Below are positions 30,001-39,000 of a stretch of 64,000 bases of DNA, in pieces. The stretch is from Salinispira sp. (GTDB lineage Bacteria; Spirochaetota; Spirochaetia; DSM-27196; Salinispiraceae), in contig CBDDDG010000021.1 of the NCBI GenBank assembly GCA_965226555.1, positions 192,001 through 256,000 of the forward strand, written 5' to 3'. A program made the position numbers. Numbering within the stretch: the stretch's first letter is position 1; each line of letters starts with the position of its first letter.

Positions 30001-33000
30001 GAAATCGCTCAATACATGTAAACCTACTCATGAAATCAGCAGGAATGGGGGAATTCTCCTTATCTACAGCAAGCTGTGGTTCTGTAATCATGAATTATTG
30101 GAAGAGGAATTGTGTCGATCTATCAAACTGGAATTCAACACGTACTATCAATAAATAATATCCGCCTGCGATCTCCTGAACCTCATCAACCATCGTCCGA
30201 TTCCCGCGAATTCCCCTGCCCTCCGAGCAGATGTATCAGTATAAAACTGGCAAGGGTGAGAACAATGAGCGATATGACCGCAAGGGGTCCGGGAAGCTGG
30301 AGCATCTGGTTATAAATGAGGTGCCCGAGTATGATCAAAAAACGCAGTATTCTCCGGGACGGCAGAGGCCGGGAAAGGATGGCTCCGAAGGCTCCGCCGA
30401 TAACCATCTGAAGCGGTATACTTCCAAGAAGAGCCGAGCCGAACTCCGACAGTACAAAACTCTGTAAATAGGTCTCAAAAAGCCCGAAGCTCAGGCCGAG
30501 AAGTATGCCTGCGAGAATCCGCTGGCGGTGCATGTAACGCTGCTCAGGGCTCACATGGACCTTCGAACACAGAAATGATAAAAGTGATATTTTCAGCAGG
30601 TCTTCAAGAACGGGAGAGCTGAATACCTTGAAGGACTCATACCAACTCCCCAGTATGGTATCGAGAAGCAGCAGCAGCAGATATACCGCAAGCGTCAGAA
30701 CGGCGCCCGCGAGAACGTACAAAATAAGCTGCGTAGGAACAATGGACAGCCCGGTGCTGCGGGTGAATCGTTGAATAAATATCAGATTAAAGACACAGAA
30801 TATTATGAGCGGAAAAAAAATGAGAGACAGCATCGTAACGGAAACCTCTCAAAACCCTTGTCTGTCGGCATGTTTGCCGGTAGTAGATCTACACACTGAG
30901 AGTTTTTTCCTCCCATGCCCCCGCGCCCCCATGCTCCCATTCCTCCAGAATAGCGATGATTTTCTGCGCTGCAGCTTCGGCCGGTATGGTTATGCGGACA
31001 AAATCCGGCAGCCCGAAACTGTCGAGCTCCCGTATAATAATTCCGTTCCGCTCCATGAGGCGGGCAATGTTTCTGCCGGAGGGGTTTTTCATGCAGATGA
31101 AGTTTCCATGCGGTTCACAAAATTCAATGCCGGACTGAGTTAATCCTGCGCAGAGCAGGGCGCGTGAGGCGCGGTTTGTTTCTCTGCTGAGGGTGAGAAA
31201 AGTATTGTCGCTGAGCGCCGCAAGGGCTGCCTGCTGGGCAGGTCCGTTTGTATTAAAGGGCAGTTTCAGCCTGTGCAGACGGCGGATAATTTCTTCTGAG
31301 GCGAGCCCGTAGCCAACCCGGAGACTCGCAAGGCCGAATATCTTGGAAAAGGTGCCGCTCACCAGCAGGTTCGGGTACTCTGAAATGAGCGCGGCGCCGT
31401 CAAAAAAAGCGGGCACATCAAAAGAAGCGGTAGTGTCCGCATATTCACCGTAGGCCTGATCTAATACCACAAGAACATCTTCGGGCGTCTGTCCCAGAAG
31501 CCAGCGCAGTTTTTCTTCAGGAATAACAGCTCCCGTTGGGTTGTTCGGGGAGCAGAGAAAAATGAGCCGGGTGTTATTATCGACAGCAGCGGCAATGCCC
31601 TCAATGTCGTGGGCAATGGCGCTGGCAGATATGCGGGGAGGAACGGCGCGGTATGTCCCGCCGAAGAGTCCGGTAGCGAAGGAATACAGGCTAAAACTGT
31701 GGCGGCTTCCTACTGCGTTTTTCCCCGGTTCAATAACAGCTGCCGCGCAGAGATGAAAAATTTCACCGCTTCCGTTGGCGCAGATAACCTGCGAGCCCCG
31801 TACCCCCCGCCAGTCGGCAATGCCCTGCCGTAATTCTTCGGGAACAACATGCGGATAAACATTCAAATTACTCAGGTTCTCCGTCAGAATTTTCCGAGCT
31901 GCGGGACTTGACCCAAGCGGATTTTCATTGGAGGAGAGTTTCATATACCCAGGTCGGCTGCGGCCGGGGCTATATTCCCTGAGGGTATCAACATTCTTAC
32001 AAAAATTCATAATACATCACAGTTTTGCTTTATGAAAAAGTTTCTATATGATATTATAGTACATATGTTTATGAATGTATCAATTATCGAAGTAATAGGA
32101 TATGTCGCCAGCGCCTTTGTTGCCGGCTCACTCCTCATGACTGCCATTCTGAAATTACGGATATTAAACCTCATCGGGAGTCTGTGTTTCATAGTCTATG
32201 GAATATTACTTCCTACCATACCGGTGCTCATTACCAATCTCTTTATCGCCATTATCAACATTGTGCAGCTCGCGCGGCTCCATAAGGAAAGGCGGCAGCA
32301 TCAGCATGAGAATGATCGAATCAATGAGGATGATCGGGCTGATCCATCAAGCTGACTCAGCAATCAGAATGATCGCAGGCCATTCGGATTGATTGAATTG
32401 ATCAGGATTGATGCGGGCGCTTCGAATGGAGCTGCGGCGGATTTTTCATGAGATATTCATGATCTCCGCTGATATCTTCTATAAGATCACCGAGCTTCAT
32501 ATTAATGGAGCGCTTTGTGGTTTTTGCGAAAATAAGCTCACGGGGATTTTCAAAGAGCTTCTTCACAGCCCGCATAATGCGCGCTATTTCATCATCTGAG
32601 AATCCGTTAAGGATCATTGCCTTGTTTTTCAGGTACTGTCTTTCTTCTTCCATAAAGATAGTATAGACTGTTTTCATGCCACTGGAACAGAACTACCGGC
32701 ACTGCAGGATTTTTCGATCATCTATTTCACGGGGAAAAATAGATGCCATTCTGGTCGATTCAAAATTCTCTTCCACCGGCGCTCAGTTTTTTCAATGGAA
32801 GGATATTCCCTGGAAATTCCATGTTCTCGGAGAAAGCCTGCCCCTTCTTGCGGAAGATGAAGTGTATTACCGGGGACAACCCATAGCCCTGCTTCTGGCT
32901 GAATCTGAAGACCTTCTGGAGCTGAGCGCCGGTATGATTCACGTCCGTTTCCGGGAATCGCCGACGCCCGGGATCACAGCTGAAACATACCCGAAAACAC

Positions 33001-36000: not shown

Positions 36001-39000
36001 ACGGAGTATCGCGACTATCGGGGGAAACCTTCTGGCAGATGCGCGGTATATTTCCGCATTCCACTACCTGAGCATGAACGATGCCAGAGTGGAACTGAGA
36101 AAATCCAGCGGGAGCCGCTGGGTTCCCATGAATAAGCTCAGAGAGGGGCAGAAGTGCTTCCTGCTGAATAGTGAAATTATTACTCGGGTACGGCTGCCGC
36201 TTATCTGGAACCATCAGCATTTCCGCTGTTTTCATTCGCATACCTCAGGAAGGGAATATGCCTTCTGCGCTCTCGCATCGGTACGCGAAAACATTCTGGA
36301 ACGGATCAGAATTGCGTACACATTCACCGGCCTGAAACAGTTCTGCGATTATCAGCTTGAATCATGTATCGTGGGGCGCCGCCTGCCGCTGCCGAAGCGT
36401 GATGCCGATCAATTCCTGAAAAATCTCGAAATCCGCTGGAGAAAGGACCCCTGCCGGAAAGAATCCGATGATCTTGCGCTGGAGCGCCTGCAAAATCTTT
36501 CTGCCTGGTTTATTCACAACATTGCCAATGCCTGATACACTCTTATCACATGCAGTTTATTCATGTGCACAATCATTCCGACTATTCTCTGCTCAAGGCA
36601 ACATCCACTCCCGGGGGGCTGGCATCTGCTGCCCGTGAAATGAACATGCCTGCCATTGCTCTCACTGACGATGCCAACCTTTTCGGAGCATGCGCCTTTT
36701 ACCGGGAATGCAGAAAGGCCGGTGTAAAGCCTATTATCGGCTGCGATTTTTTCCTCGCTCCCCACAGCCGTCATCAGAAATCGACAATTGAAGACGGCAG
36801 GCAGTACCAACGTATGGTTCTGCTTGCAAAAAACAGAGAGGGCTACCGGAATCTTGTTATGCTCAGTTCCCTTGCCTATACGGAAGGGTTTTATTACAAA
36901 CCACGAATTGATCAGGAACTCCTGCAGAAATATCATGCGGGGCTTATTGCTCTTTCCGGAGGGTTTGGCGGAGAGATTCCCCAGCTCATAAACCGCAACC
37001 GTGTGCAGGAAGCCCGGGAGAAAGCCGATTTTTACACGCAGACATTCGGTCGGGATAATTTTTACCTCGAACTTACCGATCACGGCATTGCCGGTCAGCA
37101 GCAGATAAACCATAGCCTCATTACTATTTCCCGGGACATGAATATTCCGCTTGTCGCTGCCAACGACACCTATTATCTCAGGAAGGACGATGCCGATGCC
37201 CACGATGTTCTGTTGTGCATCGGCAATAAACGGAAGAAAAATGAACCCGGACGCTTTCGCTTCAGTTCAGATCAGTTTTATCTGAAAAGCCCGGAAGAAA
37301 TGTGGAAGCTCTTTGGAGATTATCCCGATGCGCTGGAAAATACCCTGAAAATATATGAGCAGTGCAATCTGGAAATGGAATTTTCCGACCCCCTCTTTCC
37401 ACATTATGAAATACCCAATGGCTTCGATAATCCCGATGCCTATCTGCGGCACATAAGCCATGAAGGCTTTCTCCGACGCTATGAAAACCCCGATCAGAAC
37501 CTGCGGAATAGGCTCAACTATGAACTGGAGACCATCATCAAAATGGGCTTCTCAAATTACCTCCTCATTGTCTGGGATTTCATCTGCTATGCCAGAGATG
37601 CGGGCATTCCGGTCGGTCCCGGGAGGGGTTCAGGAGCCGGCAGCATGGTTGCCTATTCTCTCGGTATTACCGATATCGATCCCATGGAATACGGACTGCT
37701 TTTTGAGCGTTTTCTTAATCCGGAGCGGGTCAGTATGCCCGATCTCGATATCGATTTCTGCTTCGCGCGGCGGCAGGAGCTTATTGACTATGTAACAAGG
37801 AAATACGGCAGCGATCGGGTGGGGCAGATTATTACCTTTGGCACTCTCAAACCCCGCGCGGTCATTCGCGATGTTGCCCGGGTGCTCGACATTTCCTACG
37901 ATGAGGCGGATCATGCCGCAAAGCTTATTCCCGAGGGCTTAAAAACCACCATCGACAGCGCTCTTGCCGATGAACCTCAACTGAAAAAGCTCTATACCGC
38001 CGACACCCGTTACCGTGAACTCATTGACGTGAGCAGAAAACTTCAGAACCTCCACCGCCATGCCTCCACTCATGCCGCAGGCATTGTCATCGGGAAGGAA
38101 GCGCTCACCCGCTATGTGCCCCTGTTTCGCGATTCCCGAACAGGCGCCATTTCAACCCAGTTTACCATGGAGGAACTTGAAGATAATGGTCTTGTGAAAA
38201 TGGATATTCTCGGCCTGAAAACACTTACGCTCATCCAGAATACCCTTAATCACATATCCCTTACAGATACGGAATTCGATATTAATGCCATTCCCGGTGA
38301 CGATCCGAAAACCTTTGAAATGCTCGGCGAGGGCAAAAGTCTTGCGGTTTTTCAGTTTGAATCGGGCGGAATGCAGAAAATCCTCATCAGGGCACAGCCC
38401 ACCTGCATTGAGGACCTCATCGCCCTCAACTCCCTATTCCGCCCTGGTCCCATGGAGAACATCGGGCAGTTTATCGATGCAAAACAGGGACGGGTTAAAA
38501 TTACCTATCCGCATCCCGATCTGGAACCCATCCTCAAGGAAACATACGGTGTTATCGTCTATCAGGAACAGGTCATGGAAACTGTCCGCATAATTGCCGG
38601 CTTCAGCCTCGGAAAGGCGGACATTCTCCGAAGAGCCATGGGCAAGAAAAAAGAAAAGGACATGGCAAAAATGAGGGTCGAATACATGGATGGGGCGGCA
38701 AAGAGAGGAATAGACAAAAAAACCGCAGCCGATATTTTTGATCTCCTCAAACCCTTTGCCGGATACGGCTTCAACAAGAGCCATGCTGCCGCATACTCGG
38801 TGTTAGCCTACAAGACAGCCTACCTCAAGGCGCATTATCCCGCGCAGTTCATGGCAGCGAATCTTACCAATGAAAGCGATAACAACGATACCTTCGCCCT
38901 CTATCTCAATGAAATTAAGAAGATGGATATGGACATCCGCCCGCCCGACATCAACGAGTCCGACAAATACTTCACCGTTTCGCTTCCCAATACCCCCGCG

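Follow-up and report, generated by a model that had tools for sequence, protein, structure and literature searches.

A three-gene spirochaete locus derived from xanthine dehydrogenase that has lost the molybdenum cofactor motifs of its large subunit

The trio and its neighbourhood

The window analysed here, a stretch of 64,000 nucleotides from a Salinispira sp. contig (CBDDDG010000021.1, positions 192,001 to 256,000), carries genes for a large, a 2Fe-2S and a FAD-type subunit of the xanthine dehydrogenase (XDH) type, all on the + strand directly 5' of dnaE as the first-pass annotation had claimed (Table 1). The three genes overlap one another, and a gap of 14 bases lies between the FAD gene and dnaE. 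P0002 contains an insertion of 18-bp repeats and ends in a basic tail, and P0003 has a possible alternative start at 35594, in the third repeat copy, which may be its true start as in the cluster mate P0158. Contigs from two runs of one sample are identical over 32000-35468, so the motif loss in the large subunit is not an assembly error.

Table 1. Genes and repeats at the locus (positions counted within the window)
Feature	Position	Strand	Description
Large subunit P0001, 743 aa	32676-34907	+	XDH molybdopterin-subunit homolog, Moco-contact motifs lost
Small 2Fe-2S subunit P0002, 195 aa	34897-35484	+	Eight Cys for two [2Fe-2S] sites all retained
FAD-type subunit P0003, 357 aa	35462-36535	+	AGGS and ATIGGN retained
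dnaE, DNA polymerase III alpha	36550-40074	+	Remnant of ancestral operon; outside the complex
DUF3783 gene	32402-32677	-	Head to head with large subunit; degT at that place in relatives; outside the system
66-bp tandem repeat, 2.7 identical copies	35439-35616	+	Duplicates ribosome site and start of FAD gene
33-bp in-frame repeat in FAD gene	35721-35829	+	Pro/Ala-rich loop; shorter in P0158
18-bp in-frame repeat in 2Fe-2S gene	34989-35063	+	Relative in run X4 has a shorter stretch instead

Pfam places MoCoBD_2 and Ald_Xan_dh_C above their cut-offs, MoCoBD_1 and Fer2_2 narrowly below, and FAD_binding_5 at 67 bits. The low NCBIfam scores reported earlier were reproduced (best 35.4 and 32.6 bits against cut-offs of 784 and 850) but do not discriminate, as canonical relatives also fall short at 358-406 bits, and we dropped them as a sign of motif loss.

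The ancestral operon order is loaP-pglF-degT-[trio]-dnaE-recG. A DegT aminotransferase gene, itself behind genes for a PglF-type dehydratase and LoaP, lies directly 5' of the trio in 98/100 loci whose flank is long enough, and pglF and degT are both present in 51/54 bearers. The gene dnaE follows the trio in 56/86 loci and is absent from the other 30, which rejects an obligate link and does not support the earlier definition of the trio by its place before dnaE; the degT and dnaE links are each broken in whole families. An obligate pglF-degT link fails in both directions: in f70 the large subunit is found in 39/39 genomes and a PglF ortholog in 0/39, while pglF-degT runs into dnaE without the trio in 7/7 f84 loci and two f65 loci. 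In the window genome (G000) a different contig carries the two sugar genes. The trio thus sits in an ancestral operon from which it dissociates on both sides, and dnaE is no clue to function. In the E1/E3 deoxysugar system (DdhC/DdhD), the DegT protein has His in place of the PLP lysine. The neighbouring DegT differs in retaining Lys (96-row consensus SFYAtK; all six members inspected), and as a DegT with this lysine is not of the E1/ColD type, which needs a reductase, a role for the trio as an E1/E3-type deoxysugar reductase was ruled out.

Cofactor motifs, descent and Moco supply

The fold of the large subunit is recognisable throughout. Pfam and a PDB profile search detect, at sequence level, an a/b hammerhead and two Moco-binding domains; hhalign gives probability 100 across 676 columns, the family profile finds XdhB at E 7e-69 over most of its length, and ESM Atlas matches are XDH-family clusters only. 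One branch parts the family from every canonical row (55 rows, length 0.63, SH-like support 100 in FastTree), and a tree of the S and M subunits agrees with the split; trees were built with FastTree and a quick IQ-TREE run. Together these comparisons of sequence establish that the family descends from canonical XDH.

In the Mo-hydroxylases of the xanthine oxidase family, GGGFGGKE, FRGFG, MGQG and GQxEGG are the pterin and phosphate loops, and GxGE holds the catalytic Glu. Across 242 family rows, which are interrelated and partly redundant, the GGxFG loop is found in none, compared with 17/17 sister canonical rows. The Arg of FRGFG and the small residue in VASR are each kept in 22 rows and the Gln of GQxEGG in 4 (17/17 canonical rows for all three), and GQG is kept in 2 (16/17 canonical). 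These motifs are absent also from family members in genomes that make Moco. The catalytic-Glu position is acidic in 162/242 rows (Glu 113, Asp 49); in the window it is a Glu within FKEL, its flanking glycines absent. The earlier GxGE count overstated the loss at this site: G.GE is present in 36/140 representatives, and Glu or Asp occupies that column in 88/140; eight representatives had been classed as canonical using the same motifs later counted. The Arg880 equivalent is retained in 182/242 rows and the Mo-oxo Gln in 152/242, the Glu802 equivalent is lost, and in the lineage of the window a Gln replaces Arg880. A new Glu, E293, stands four residues ahead of the Arg880 equivalent in 210/242 rows and is among the family-specific residues of P0001 (W191, E293, R407, R556-F-x-x-P-L-P562, P696, Q705). 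The role of Q197 is taken from PMC10673323, which also describes pterin binding in XDH as partly through backbone NH groups, so that side-chain changes do not strictly exclude binding.

All 21 gene pairs compared are under purifying selection (dN/dS 0.06-0.34), and the intact three-gene order persists after relocation in f15 and f64. The motif counts, the tree and these ratios bear out the earlier proposal of a large XDH-derived family, annotated as Mo-binding, that has lost its Moco motifs. Its supposed spirochaete-wide range is not supported: relatives of these genes are present, with gaps, across most lineages of the class to which the window belongs, family f27 of the phylum sample gave no match (0/61), and the loci inspected in f26, f32 and f40 encode canonical enzymes in 9/9 cases. 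A metagenome scan and one genome scan found no relative, and no RNA holder is listed. Borrelia-type genomes had at first seemed to lack the family (f15: 0/7, 0/2, 0/32), a result overturned by a FAD-subunit profile and by reading the loci; since these copies were first missed, divergent and relocated copies may likewise lie behind the negative results for f76, f84, f65, f69 and part of f64.

A search for MoaC, MoeA, MoaA-C-terminal, XdhC and DMSO-reductase-family domains found none in the window genome (93.5% complete), in agreement with the earlier claim that it lacks Moco synthesis, and none in the complete family-member genomes G095 and G097. MoeA and XdhC are both absent from 53/75 bearers, and MoaC was found in 4/54 class-level bearers and 8/66 further genomes, with 0/13 in f15; MoeA occurs in 13/22 genomes of the window's own order. 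These counts show that in most genomes the family does without Moco synthesis and XdhC, in support of the Moco independence proposed in the first-pass annotation. XdhC is absent from 37/40 f12 genomes. Three f12 genomes have canonical XDH and XdhC without MoaC or MoeA, so Moco scavenging looks possible; these possible scavengers retain XdhC, a MocA-like gene and canonical loops, and the trio family retains none of them. In Rhodobacter capsulatus XDH, XdhC is required for Moco insertion (PMC2997495).

Redox sites and the Borrelia and Treponema members

Both Cys motifs are retained in 94/105 small subunits, a proportion easier to reconcile with a functional redox wire than with a passive scaffold, and all eight Cys are present in the window and in 23/23 rows of its order. 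The first Gly of AGGT is kept in 98/99 FAD subunits and the TxGGN positions in 84-98 of 99; the SPxxD and DxRSxxYR of canonical FAD subunits are not conserved in the family. The small subunit is more basic than its canonical relatives (median pI 8.1 vs 5.4). The first-cluster Cys are lost in the T. pallidum-type locus L128, in L152, in L229 and in 5/5 Borrelia loci, and both cluster motifs in L116 and L215. Fe-S and FAD motifs have been lost in lineages that retain all three genes, so the electron carrier suggested earlier cannot be the universal job.

Literature on the family does exist, contrary to what had been stated: the proteins are tabulated as orphan xanthine oxidase (XO) family members (PMC6147048), and the Borrelia locus has published genetics (PMC9993122). 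The latter study describes bb0554-0556 (xdhACB) as required for peroxide resistance, infection, and survival in tick and mouse, and assumes that it makes urate. Deletion of the locus causes H2O2 sensitivity and disruption of any single gene a similar defect; 1 mM allopurinol phenocopies the deletion in a locus-dependent manner, urate rescues, and no urate is measurable in B. burgdorferi (PMC9993122).

In our comparison each of the three subunits of the very divergent Borrelia trio is closer to its family counterparts than to canonical XDH, on a long branch. Family and canonical profiles score 63-72 vs 22-26 bits for S and 80-89 vs 25-37 bits for M, and an alignment of the large subunit with the family spans 576 columns at a probability of 97%, against 1% for the sister profile. 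The Borrelia sequences compared are from the relapsing-fever group. Because their branch has a length of 2.48, which is very long, and the family profile is deeper than that of the sister group, orthology is likely rather than proven, and bb0554-0556 are likely members of the family. The Borrelia trio lacks the first-cluster Cys in 5/5 and the FAD motifs in 4/4 sequences, and its large subunit has no clear match at the Arg880 position. With no Moco, production of urate by Mo chemistry at this locus is unlikely.

Competing readings and known systems

The cofactor counts lend themselves to a Moco-free flavin/iron-sulfur oxidoreductase, the electron-carrier reading suggested earlier. FAD and two [2Fe-2S] clusters would here connect NAD(P)H, ferredoxin or flavodoxin on one side with oxygen, peroxide or a partner on the other, and the large subunit would serve as the base for docking. 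FAD and Fe-S are retained in R. capsulatus XDH that lacks Moco (PMC2997495), the basic small subunit is in keeping with such a role, and a strong RnfC match occurs in 46/46 bearers tested vs 10/34 comparison genomes; that comparison set was later found to include five Borrelia bearers that have no RnfC. This co-occurrence is not decisive, because RnfC is present in f84 although the trio is missing there, and Borrelia, which has the trio, shows no strong match to RnfC. With the wire broken in lineages where all three genes persist, the FAD motifs gone in Borrelia and two canonical FAD motifs not conserved, we regard this reading as possible but somewhat unlikely. Decay of pseudogenes carried in a conserved operon, to which the long branches and the repeat insertions of the window's copies might point, is refuted for the family as a whole by purifying selection; the gene order kept after relocation and the strong mutant phenotypes (PMC9993122) also speak against it, and it is highly improbable.

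Moco-independent purine handling, with the old pocket binding hypoxanthine, xanthine or urate to oxidise, store or sense it without molybdenum, would suit the retained Arg880 equivalent, the acidic catalytic position and E293, the allopurinol and urate results in B. burgdorferi, and the purine-catabolism clusters in which sister enzymes sit. We consider it unlikely, as the Glu802 equivalent is lost, the Arg880 position is changed in the window's lineage and without a clear match in Borrelia, urate acts as an antioxidant in general, the allopurinol dose was 1 mM and no urate was detected (PMC9993122). An accessory redox or scaffold part in a PglF/DegT amino-sugar pathway for cell-envelope glycan draws on the near-constant degT upstream and on a Tn-seq study that puts the trio genes together with a possible response to membrane damage (PMC5333916); the f70, f84 and f65 loci, the retained DegT lysine and the separate contig of the sugar genes in G000 make it very doubtful. 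A genuine Mo-hydroxylase that binds Moco in an unusual mode and obtains it by synthesis or scavenging, which is the enzyme of the annotation and of the Borrelia proposal, is no less improbable: full-length homology, some kept active-site residues, the Moco genes of many free-living bearers and possible scavenging speak for it, and against it stand the scavengers' own retention of XdhC and loops, the scarcity of XdhC in f12, motif loss even where Moco is made, and Table S1 of PMC6147048, which for 8 Borrelia entries and the T. pallidum entry lists no Moco pathway or Mo transporter.

We tentatively favour, at a probability of roughly 0.45, a Moco-free, XDH-derived complex, likely assembled, that would protect against peroxide as a ligand-binding or redox-sensing scaffold and would not hydroxylate purines. 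The trio has lost its Moco motifs and is retained under purifying selection, with subunits that probably still assemble. From the alignment, the cofactor pocket appears closed by bulky and acidic residues of the family, namely by a Trp next to the Mo-oxo Gln, by Asp and Trp in the old GGGFGGKE loop, and by Leu or Phe at the Ala1079 position. Of the metal sites, the C-terminal Cys4 site may be the one that lasts longest, with Fe-S as its ligand set or perhaps, in the iron-poor Borrelia, zinc. FAD and both clusters, kept in most free-living members including the window's, would be a redox input that some lineages dispense with. The putative stress-protection role in the window's organism is carried over from B. 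burgdorferi genetics.

On a wider scale, we lean slightly towards an ancient pseudo-molybdoenzyme: the ancestor of class Spirochaetia would have given up Mo and turned the enzyme into a three-subunit stress-protection machine with a new, cofactor-independent job, which persists in free-living relatives of Salinispira as well as in the spirochaetes of syphilis and Lyme disease. Different lineages would have shed first Moco, next one or both Fe-S sites and finally FAD motifs, leaving the Borrelia 'xanthine dehydrogenase' as the most stripped member, making no urate by Mo chemistry. This would account for many of the 'orphan' XO-family proteins left open by a 2018 survey, supply the missing sequence features and correct the annotation as Mo-binding throughout a class of bacteria. 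It would also challenge the mechanism proposed for the B. burgdorferi locus: in the absence of Moco, some other explanation is needed for the protection from peroxide and for the allopurinol effect. The graded loss of cofactor sites would form a rare natural series from metalloenzyme to pseudoenzyme, and free-living members with FAD and both Fe-S sites, like the window's, make the question directly testable in harmless organisms.

Among known systems, the XO family Mo-hydroxylases (R. capsulatus XdhAB 1JRO/2W55, mammalian XOR, nicotinate dehydrogenase 3HRD and 4-hydroxybenzoyl-CoA reductase 1RM6) share the three-part layout and, with most family members, the Cys pattern and FAD core motifs. 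The family differs in its lost Moco-contact motifs, its own conserved residues, the absence of XdhC and Moco synthesis from most genomes and the further cofactor motifs lost in several lineages. The nearest sister is the canonical purine-cluster XDH (L131-L139, L194-L197, L199, L202, L204), of about 710 aa and the same gene order, which occurs beside the family in the same genomes (e.g. G434, G454, G474) but has all Moco motifs intact and adjoins YgfK-, SsnA- and carbamate-kinase-like genes; outside the class, MoaC is present in 24/26 genomes with this enzyme. Demolybdo xanthine oxidoreductase of milk has an XDH fold without Moco and a structural role (PMC13653126), but is the unloaded form of a normal enzyme and not a lineage with motifs lost.

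The orphan XO survey (Peng et al. 2018, PMC6147048) raised Mo-independent forms as a possibility and lists Salinispira pacifica, Spirochaeta africana, T. denticola, T. pallidum and S. coccoides with one XO each and no Moco pathway. It could not tell orphans apart by any feature of their sequence and recorded no XO for Borrelia, whereas sequence features, a clade and the Borrelia link are presented here. In T. pallidum (AAC65074.1 and TPASS_0079/0081) the family member lies behind pglF-degT and is annotated as an XDH molybdopterin subunit (PMC5951579), an identity known from annotation only; it differs from the window's copy in that the neighbouring small subunit lacks the first-cluster Cys. 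B. burgdorferi XdhACB (BB0554-BB0556) has the same gene order and similar lengths, 622/155/289 aa (PMC9993122) vs 619-626/153/284-287 aa in the five Borrelia loci here, whose proteins are identical to or clustered with those named Borrelia XDH subunit M (one tag BKFM_00556). The published primer fits the small-gene start in 3/5 loci with 5 mismatches of 28, and these loci nest within the family. PMC9993122 proposes a working urate-making Moco enzyme, whereas the Borrelia proteins here are without Moco motifs, and their first Fe-S site and FAD motifs are gone; in the window copy the FAD motifs and the two Fe-S sites are all present.

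The gene trio and its large subunit

The large, 2Fe-2S (small) and FAD-type genes of this xanthine dehydrogenase (XDH)-like trio are each present in single copy in the window's genome by tblastn, and records that cluster with the large and FAD subunits bear the name Salinispira sp. Two runs of one sample yield contigs that are identical to the window over 32000-35468 and end at the repeats. In-frame tandem repeats occur in both the small and the FAD gene; in a cluster mate the 66-bp duplication is absent and the Pro/Ala loop is shorter. Several conserved genes of the genome have insertions of this kind (32983-33031, 34989-35063, 35439-35616, 35721-35829 and within dnaE), and one duplicates the start codon plus its ribosome site. 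The stretch 40215-42699 has the look of a single surface-protein gene with a frameshift, its lipoprotein-like ORF overlapping an fn3/DUF285 ORF in another frame. Near the locus, 26236-30154 and 43056-44275 hold genes for a Fic protein, a GIY-YIG protein and a YhgA-like transposase, the last apparently split into two ORFs.

Features of the trio locus, in window positions
Feature	Position	Strand	Basis and remarks
Large subunit, 743 aa	32676-34907	+	ORF and domain reading; overlaps next gene
2Fe-2S subunit, 195 aa	34897-35484	+	ORF and domain reading; overlaps neighbours
FAD-type subunit	35462-36535	+	ORF and domain reading; overlaps 2Fe-2S gene
dnaE	begins 14 bases past FAD-type gene
DUF3783 gene	upstream of large subunit		head-to-head

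The family to which the large subunit belongs descends from canonical XDH and has lost the motifs for the molybdenum cofactor (Moco). We gathered 277 candidate large subunits, of which 263 near-full-length proteins were aligned and 14 partial ones left out. We then set 242 family rows, drawn with some redundancy from 102 loci and 140 representatives, against 17 sister canonical rows, the purine-cluster XDH of other spirochaetes; 8 representatives were classed as canonical by the very motifs counted, so that part of the comparison is circular. The absence of the Moco glycine loops proposed in the first-pass annotation was borne out, as GGxFG occurs in 0/242 family rows compared with 17/17 sister rows. 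The FRGFG Arg (22/242 against 17/17), GQG (2/242 against 16/17), the GQxEGG Gln (4/242 against 17/17) and a small residue at the VASR Ala (22/242 against 17/17) follow the same division, and the usual substitutes are G-x-x-L-D-G-K-L-W, TQWP and P-S-x-L-S-R.

Positions were mapped onto R. capsulatus XdhB and human XOR by profile alignment, and for all except Q197 we assume the residue roles at those positions. The suggested loss of the catalytic GxGE is partial: the window's FKEL lacks the glycines, and Glu or Asp is kept at the catalytic position in 162/242 family rows. The Arg880 equivalent is retained in 182 rows, the Mo-oxo Gln in 152. Erosion has gone further in the window's large subunit (VAWP, DSAFID, NVFRGMP, FKEL) than in most family members. 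Among the family-specific residues are W191, E293, R407, R556, F557, L561, P562, P696 and Q705, with R407 present in all 242 rows, as had been claimed. A 100-row tree sets 55 family rows apart from the rest by a single branch (length 0.63, SH-like support 100), and 7 rows mislabelled by motif pattern sit among canonical enzymes. Canonical and family paralogs coexist in three genomes (G434, G454, G474).

Cofactor supply and range

Consistent with the earlier claim that the genome makes no Moco, domain searches of this 93.5% complete assembly found no MoaC, MoeA, MoaA-C-terminal, XdhC (the XDH Moco-insertion factor) or DMSO-reductase-family domains; controls were positive in 5 to 11 of 14 genomes. 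The objection that many homolog-bearing genomes do make Moco applies, as far as MoaC goes, mainly beyond the window's class. MoaC was present in 28 of 80 genomes selected for a strong match, divided by kinship into 4/54 inside the class (30 of these had their loci read) and 24/26 outside, where 9/9 loci read encode canonical enzymes, within purine clusters or close to them. MoaC was not found in the 40 genomes of family f12, and a second set had it in 8/66 (f15, 0/13; f70, 3/39). Among 75 bearers, MoeA was found in 17, XdhC in 14 and neither in 53, these Moco-gene counts coming from kin genomes that are not independent trials. The presence of MoeA in 13/22 genomes of the window's order counts against a simple picture. 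The family is under selection and independent of Moco supply in most genomes, and the Moco-free part of our reading, taken alone, is very probably correct.

In three of nine genomes of genus g27 (L155:4987-16105, also L156 and L176), an operon of the XDH family whose loops are largely canonical encodes an ammonia-lyase, a BCCT-like transporter, XdhC, a MocA-like protein and small, FAD and large subunits; it adjoins an ABC transporter whose binding protein is BtuF/FecB-like. Neither MoaC nor MoeA was found in these three genomes, and the operon is a candidate Moco-scavenging system. The same question is raised by f70, in which canonical XDH clusters with intact motifs (L194-L197) occur though MoaC was found in only 3/39 genomes.

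The window's large subunit matches 96/99 order genomes, some weakly, and a profile search showed that 2 of the 3 missed do hold the locus. Across the class sample the profile matches 212/251 genomes, a count that takes in canonical paralogs. Named family records include Sediminispirochaeta, Marispirochaeta, Treponema, Parasphaerochaeta and Borrelia. The proposed spirochaete-wide range is not supported as put: the family reaches across the window's class with gaps, and was not found in f76 (0/15) or f84 (0/8) with an f70 query, in f65, f69 or two f64 genomes by profile search, or, outside the class, in f27 (0/61). Fermentibacteria is the only non-spirochaete name among 80 record titles, and the family member under it sits on a 2.6-kb contig (L053) that is possibly misbinned; one other title says just 'uncultured bacterium'.

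Borrelia and the published record

A FAD-subunit profile matches 3/5 genomes of f15 (E about 1e-11), and each of the 5 f15 loci read encodes three subunits (619-626, 153 and 284-287 aa) whose scores on the family profiles exceed those on the canonical ones. Proteins identical to or clustered with these are named Borrelia XDH subunit M. The Borrelia large subunit matches the family profile at 97% probability over 576 columns, compared with 1% for the shallower sister profile, and retains the R407-K408, P562 and Q705 positions; in a small-plus-FAD tree the Borrelia proteins nest within the family on a very long branch. The Borrelia trio lacks the Moco motifs, the first-cluster Cys and the FAD motifs, while the C-terminal CxxC...CxC is retained. 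Elsewhere, 94/105 small subunits have both Cys motifs, 3 show a spacing variant and 8 have lost one or both; further Fe-S motif losses occur at L152, L184, L215 and L229. Of 99 FAD subunits, most retain the AGGT and TxGGN cores but not SPxxD and DxRSxxYR. A basic C-terminal helix persists in small subunits with neither cluster motif (L215:3492-4043, L116:10323-10799).

The first-pass view that nothing on point is in print does not hold. In Phelan et al. 2023 (PMC9993122), the B. burgdorferi genes bb0554-0556, published as xdhACB, form one transcript dispensable in medium and required for H2O2 resistance and mouse infection, the defect being rescued by urate and phenocopied by 1 mM allopurinol. 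Those authors state that the enzyme was not confirmed biochemically and urate not detected, and Moco binding was assumed on the basis of a model that has 82% confidence and spans 12% of the protein. Ramsey et al. 2017 (PMC5333916) place these genes with a possible membrane-damage response. In Table S1 of Peng et al. 2018 (PMC6147048), several of the species concerned have a single XO protein and lack a Moco pathway; that study raises Mo-independent forms and reports that no sequence feature was found. Among titles and abstract openings, with few subscription journals and with supplements that could bear on the matter, we found none calling the family Moco-free and none joining the Treponema and Borrelia loci. 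In a table of PMC5951579 the T. pallidum genes carry an XDH annotation.

Gene neighbours and proposed role

The common order is loaP-pglF-degT-large-small-FAD-dnaE-recG-rsmD. Among 111 family loci, degT is the immediate upstream gene in 98 of the 100 whose flank is long enough, and dnaE the next gene after the trio in 56/86. In the window's genome the pglF-degT pair lies away from the trio on contig C19 (L151:7473-10650), and LoaP was not found with the query used; DegT there is 573 aa, compared with about 400 usually, and has repeat-like insertions. In f70 the large subunit occurs in 39/39 genomes (whole trio read in 8) and a PglF ortholog in 0, with a longer, generic PglF only in 19, while at seven f84 and two f65 loci pglF-degT is followed by dnaE and the trio is absent. 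Since the trio is uncoupled from both pglF-degT and dnaE, its place before dnaE, correctly noted earlier, is a legacy of an old operon, and its function cannot be read from either neighbour. DNA replication and repair genes are recurrent neighbours. A putative ligA, which we presume to be such from its N-terminus, stands immediately or two genes before the trio in f70, f66 and Borrelia (L223, L224, L228, L243, L246-L248, L253-L255, L257, L259), and ruvABC-queA lies downstream on the opposite strand in many treponemes.

Of the two roles initially offered, electron carrier or ligand-binding scaffold, we favour a binding or sensing scaffold with optional redox input, at a probability of roughly 0.45. 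The subunits would still assemble, the cofactor pocket would be closed, and the job would be binding or sensing. In Borrelia, the one lineage for which there is a phenotype, more cofactor motifs have been lost than in any other, which makes either Mo catalysis or a full FAD-to-Fe-S wire unlikely as the indispensable function and leads us to prefer a scaffold or sensor. A flavin/Fe-S oxidoreductase is the next reading in line but less likely, and a true Mo enzyme quite improbable. Moco-independent purine handling is an unlikely role. An accessory of a glycan pathway is about as improbable as a Mo enzyme, as pglF-degT and the trio occur without each other. Decay is scarcely credible, with dN/dS of 0.06-0.34 in 21/21 gene pairs (7 genome pairs, five families). 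The family is real, selected, mis-annotated and wider than the first-pass annotation saw. Compared with the Mo-hydroxylases, the trio is XDH-like in layout only, departing from them in both its cofactor loops and its cofactor supply.
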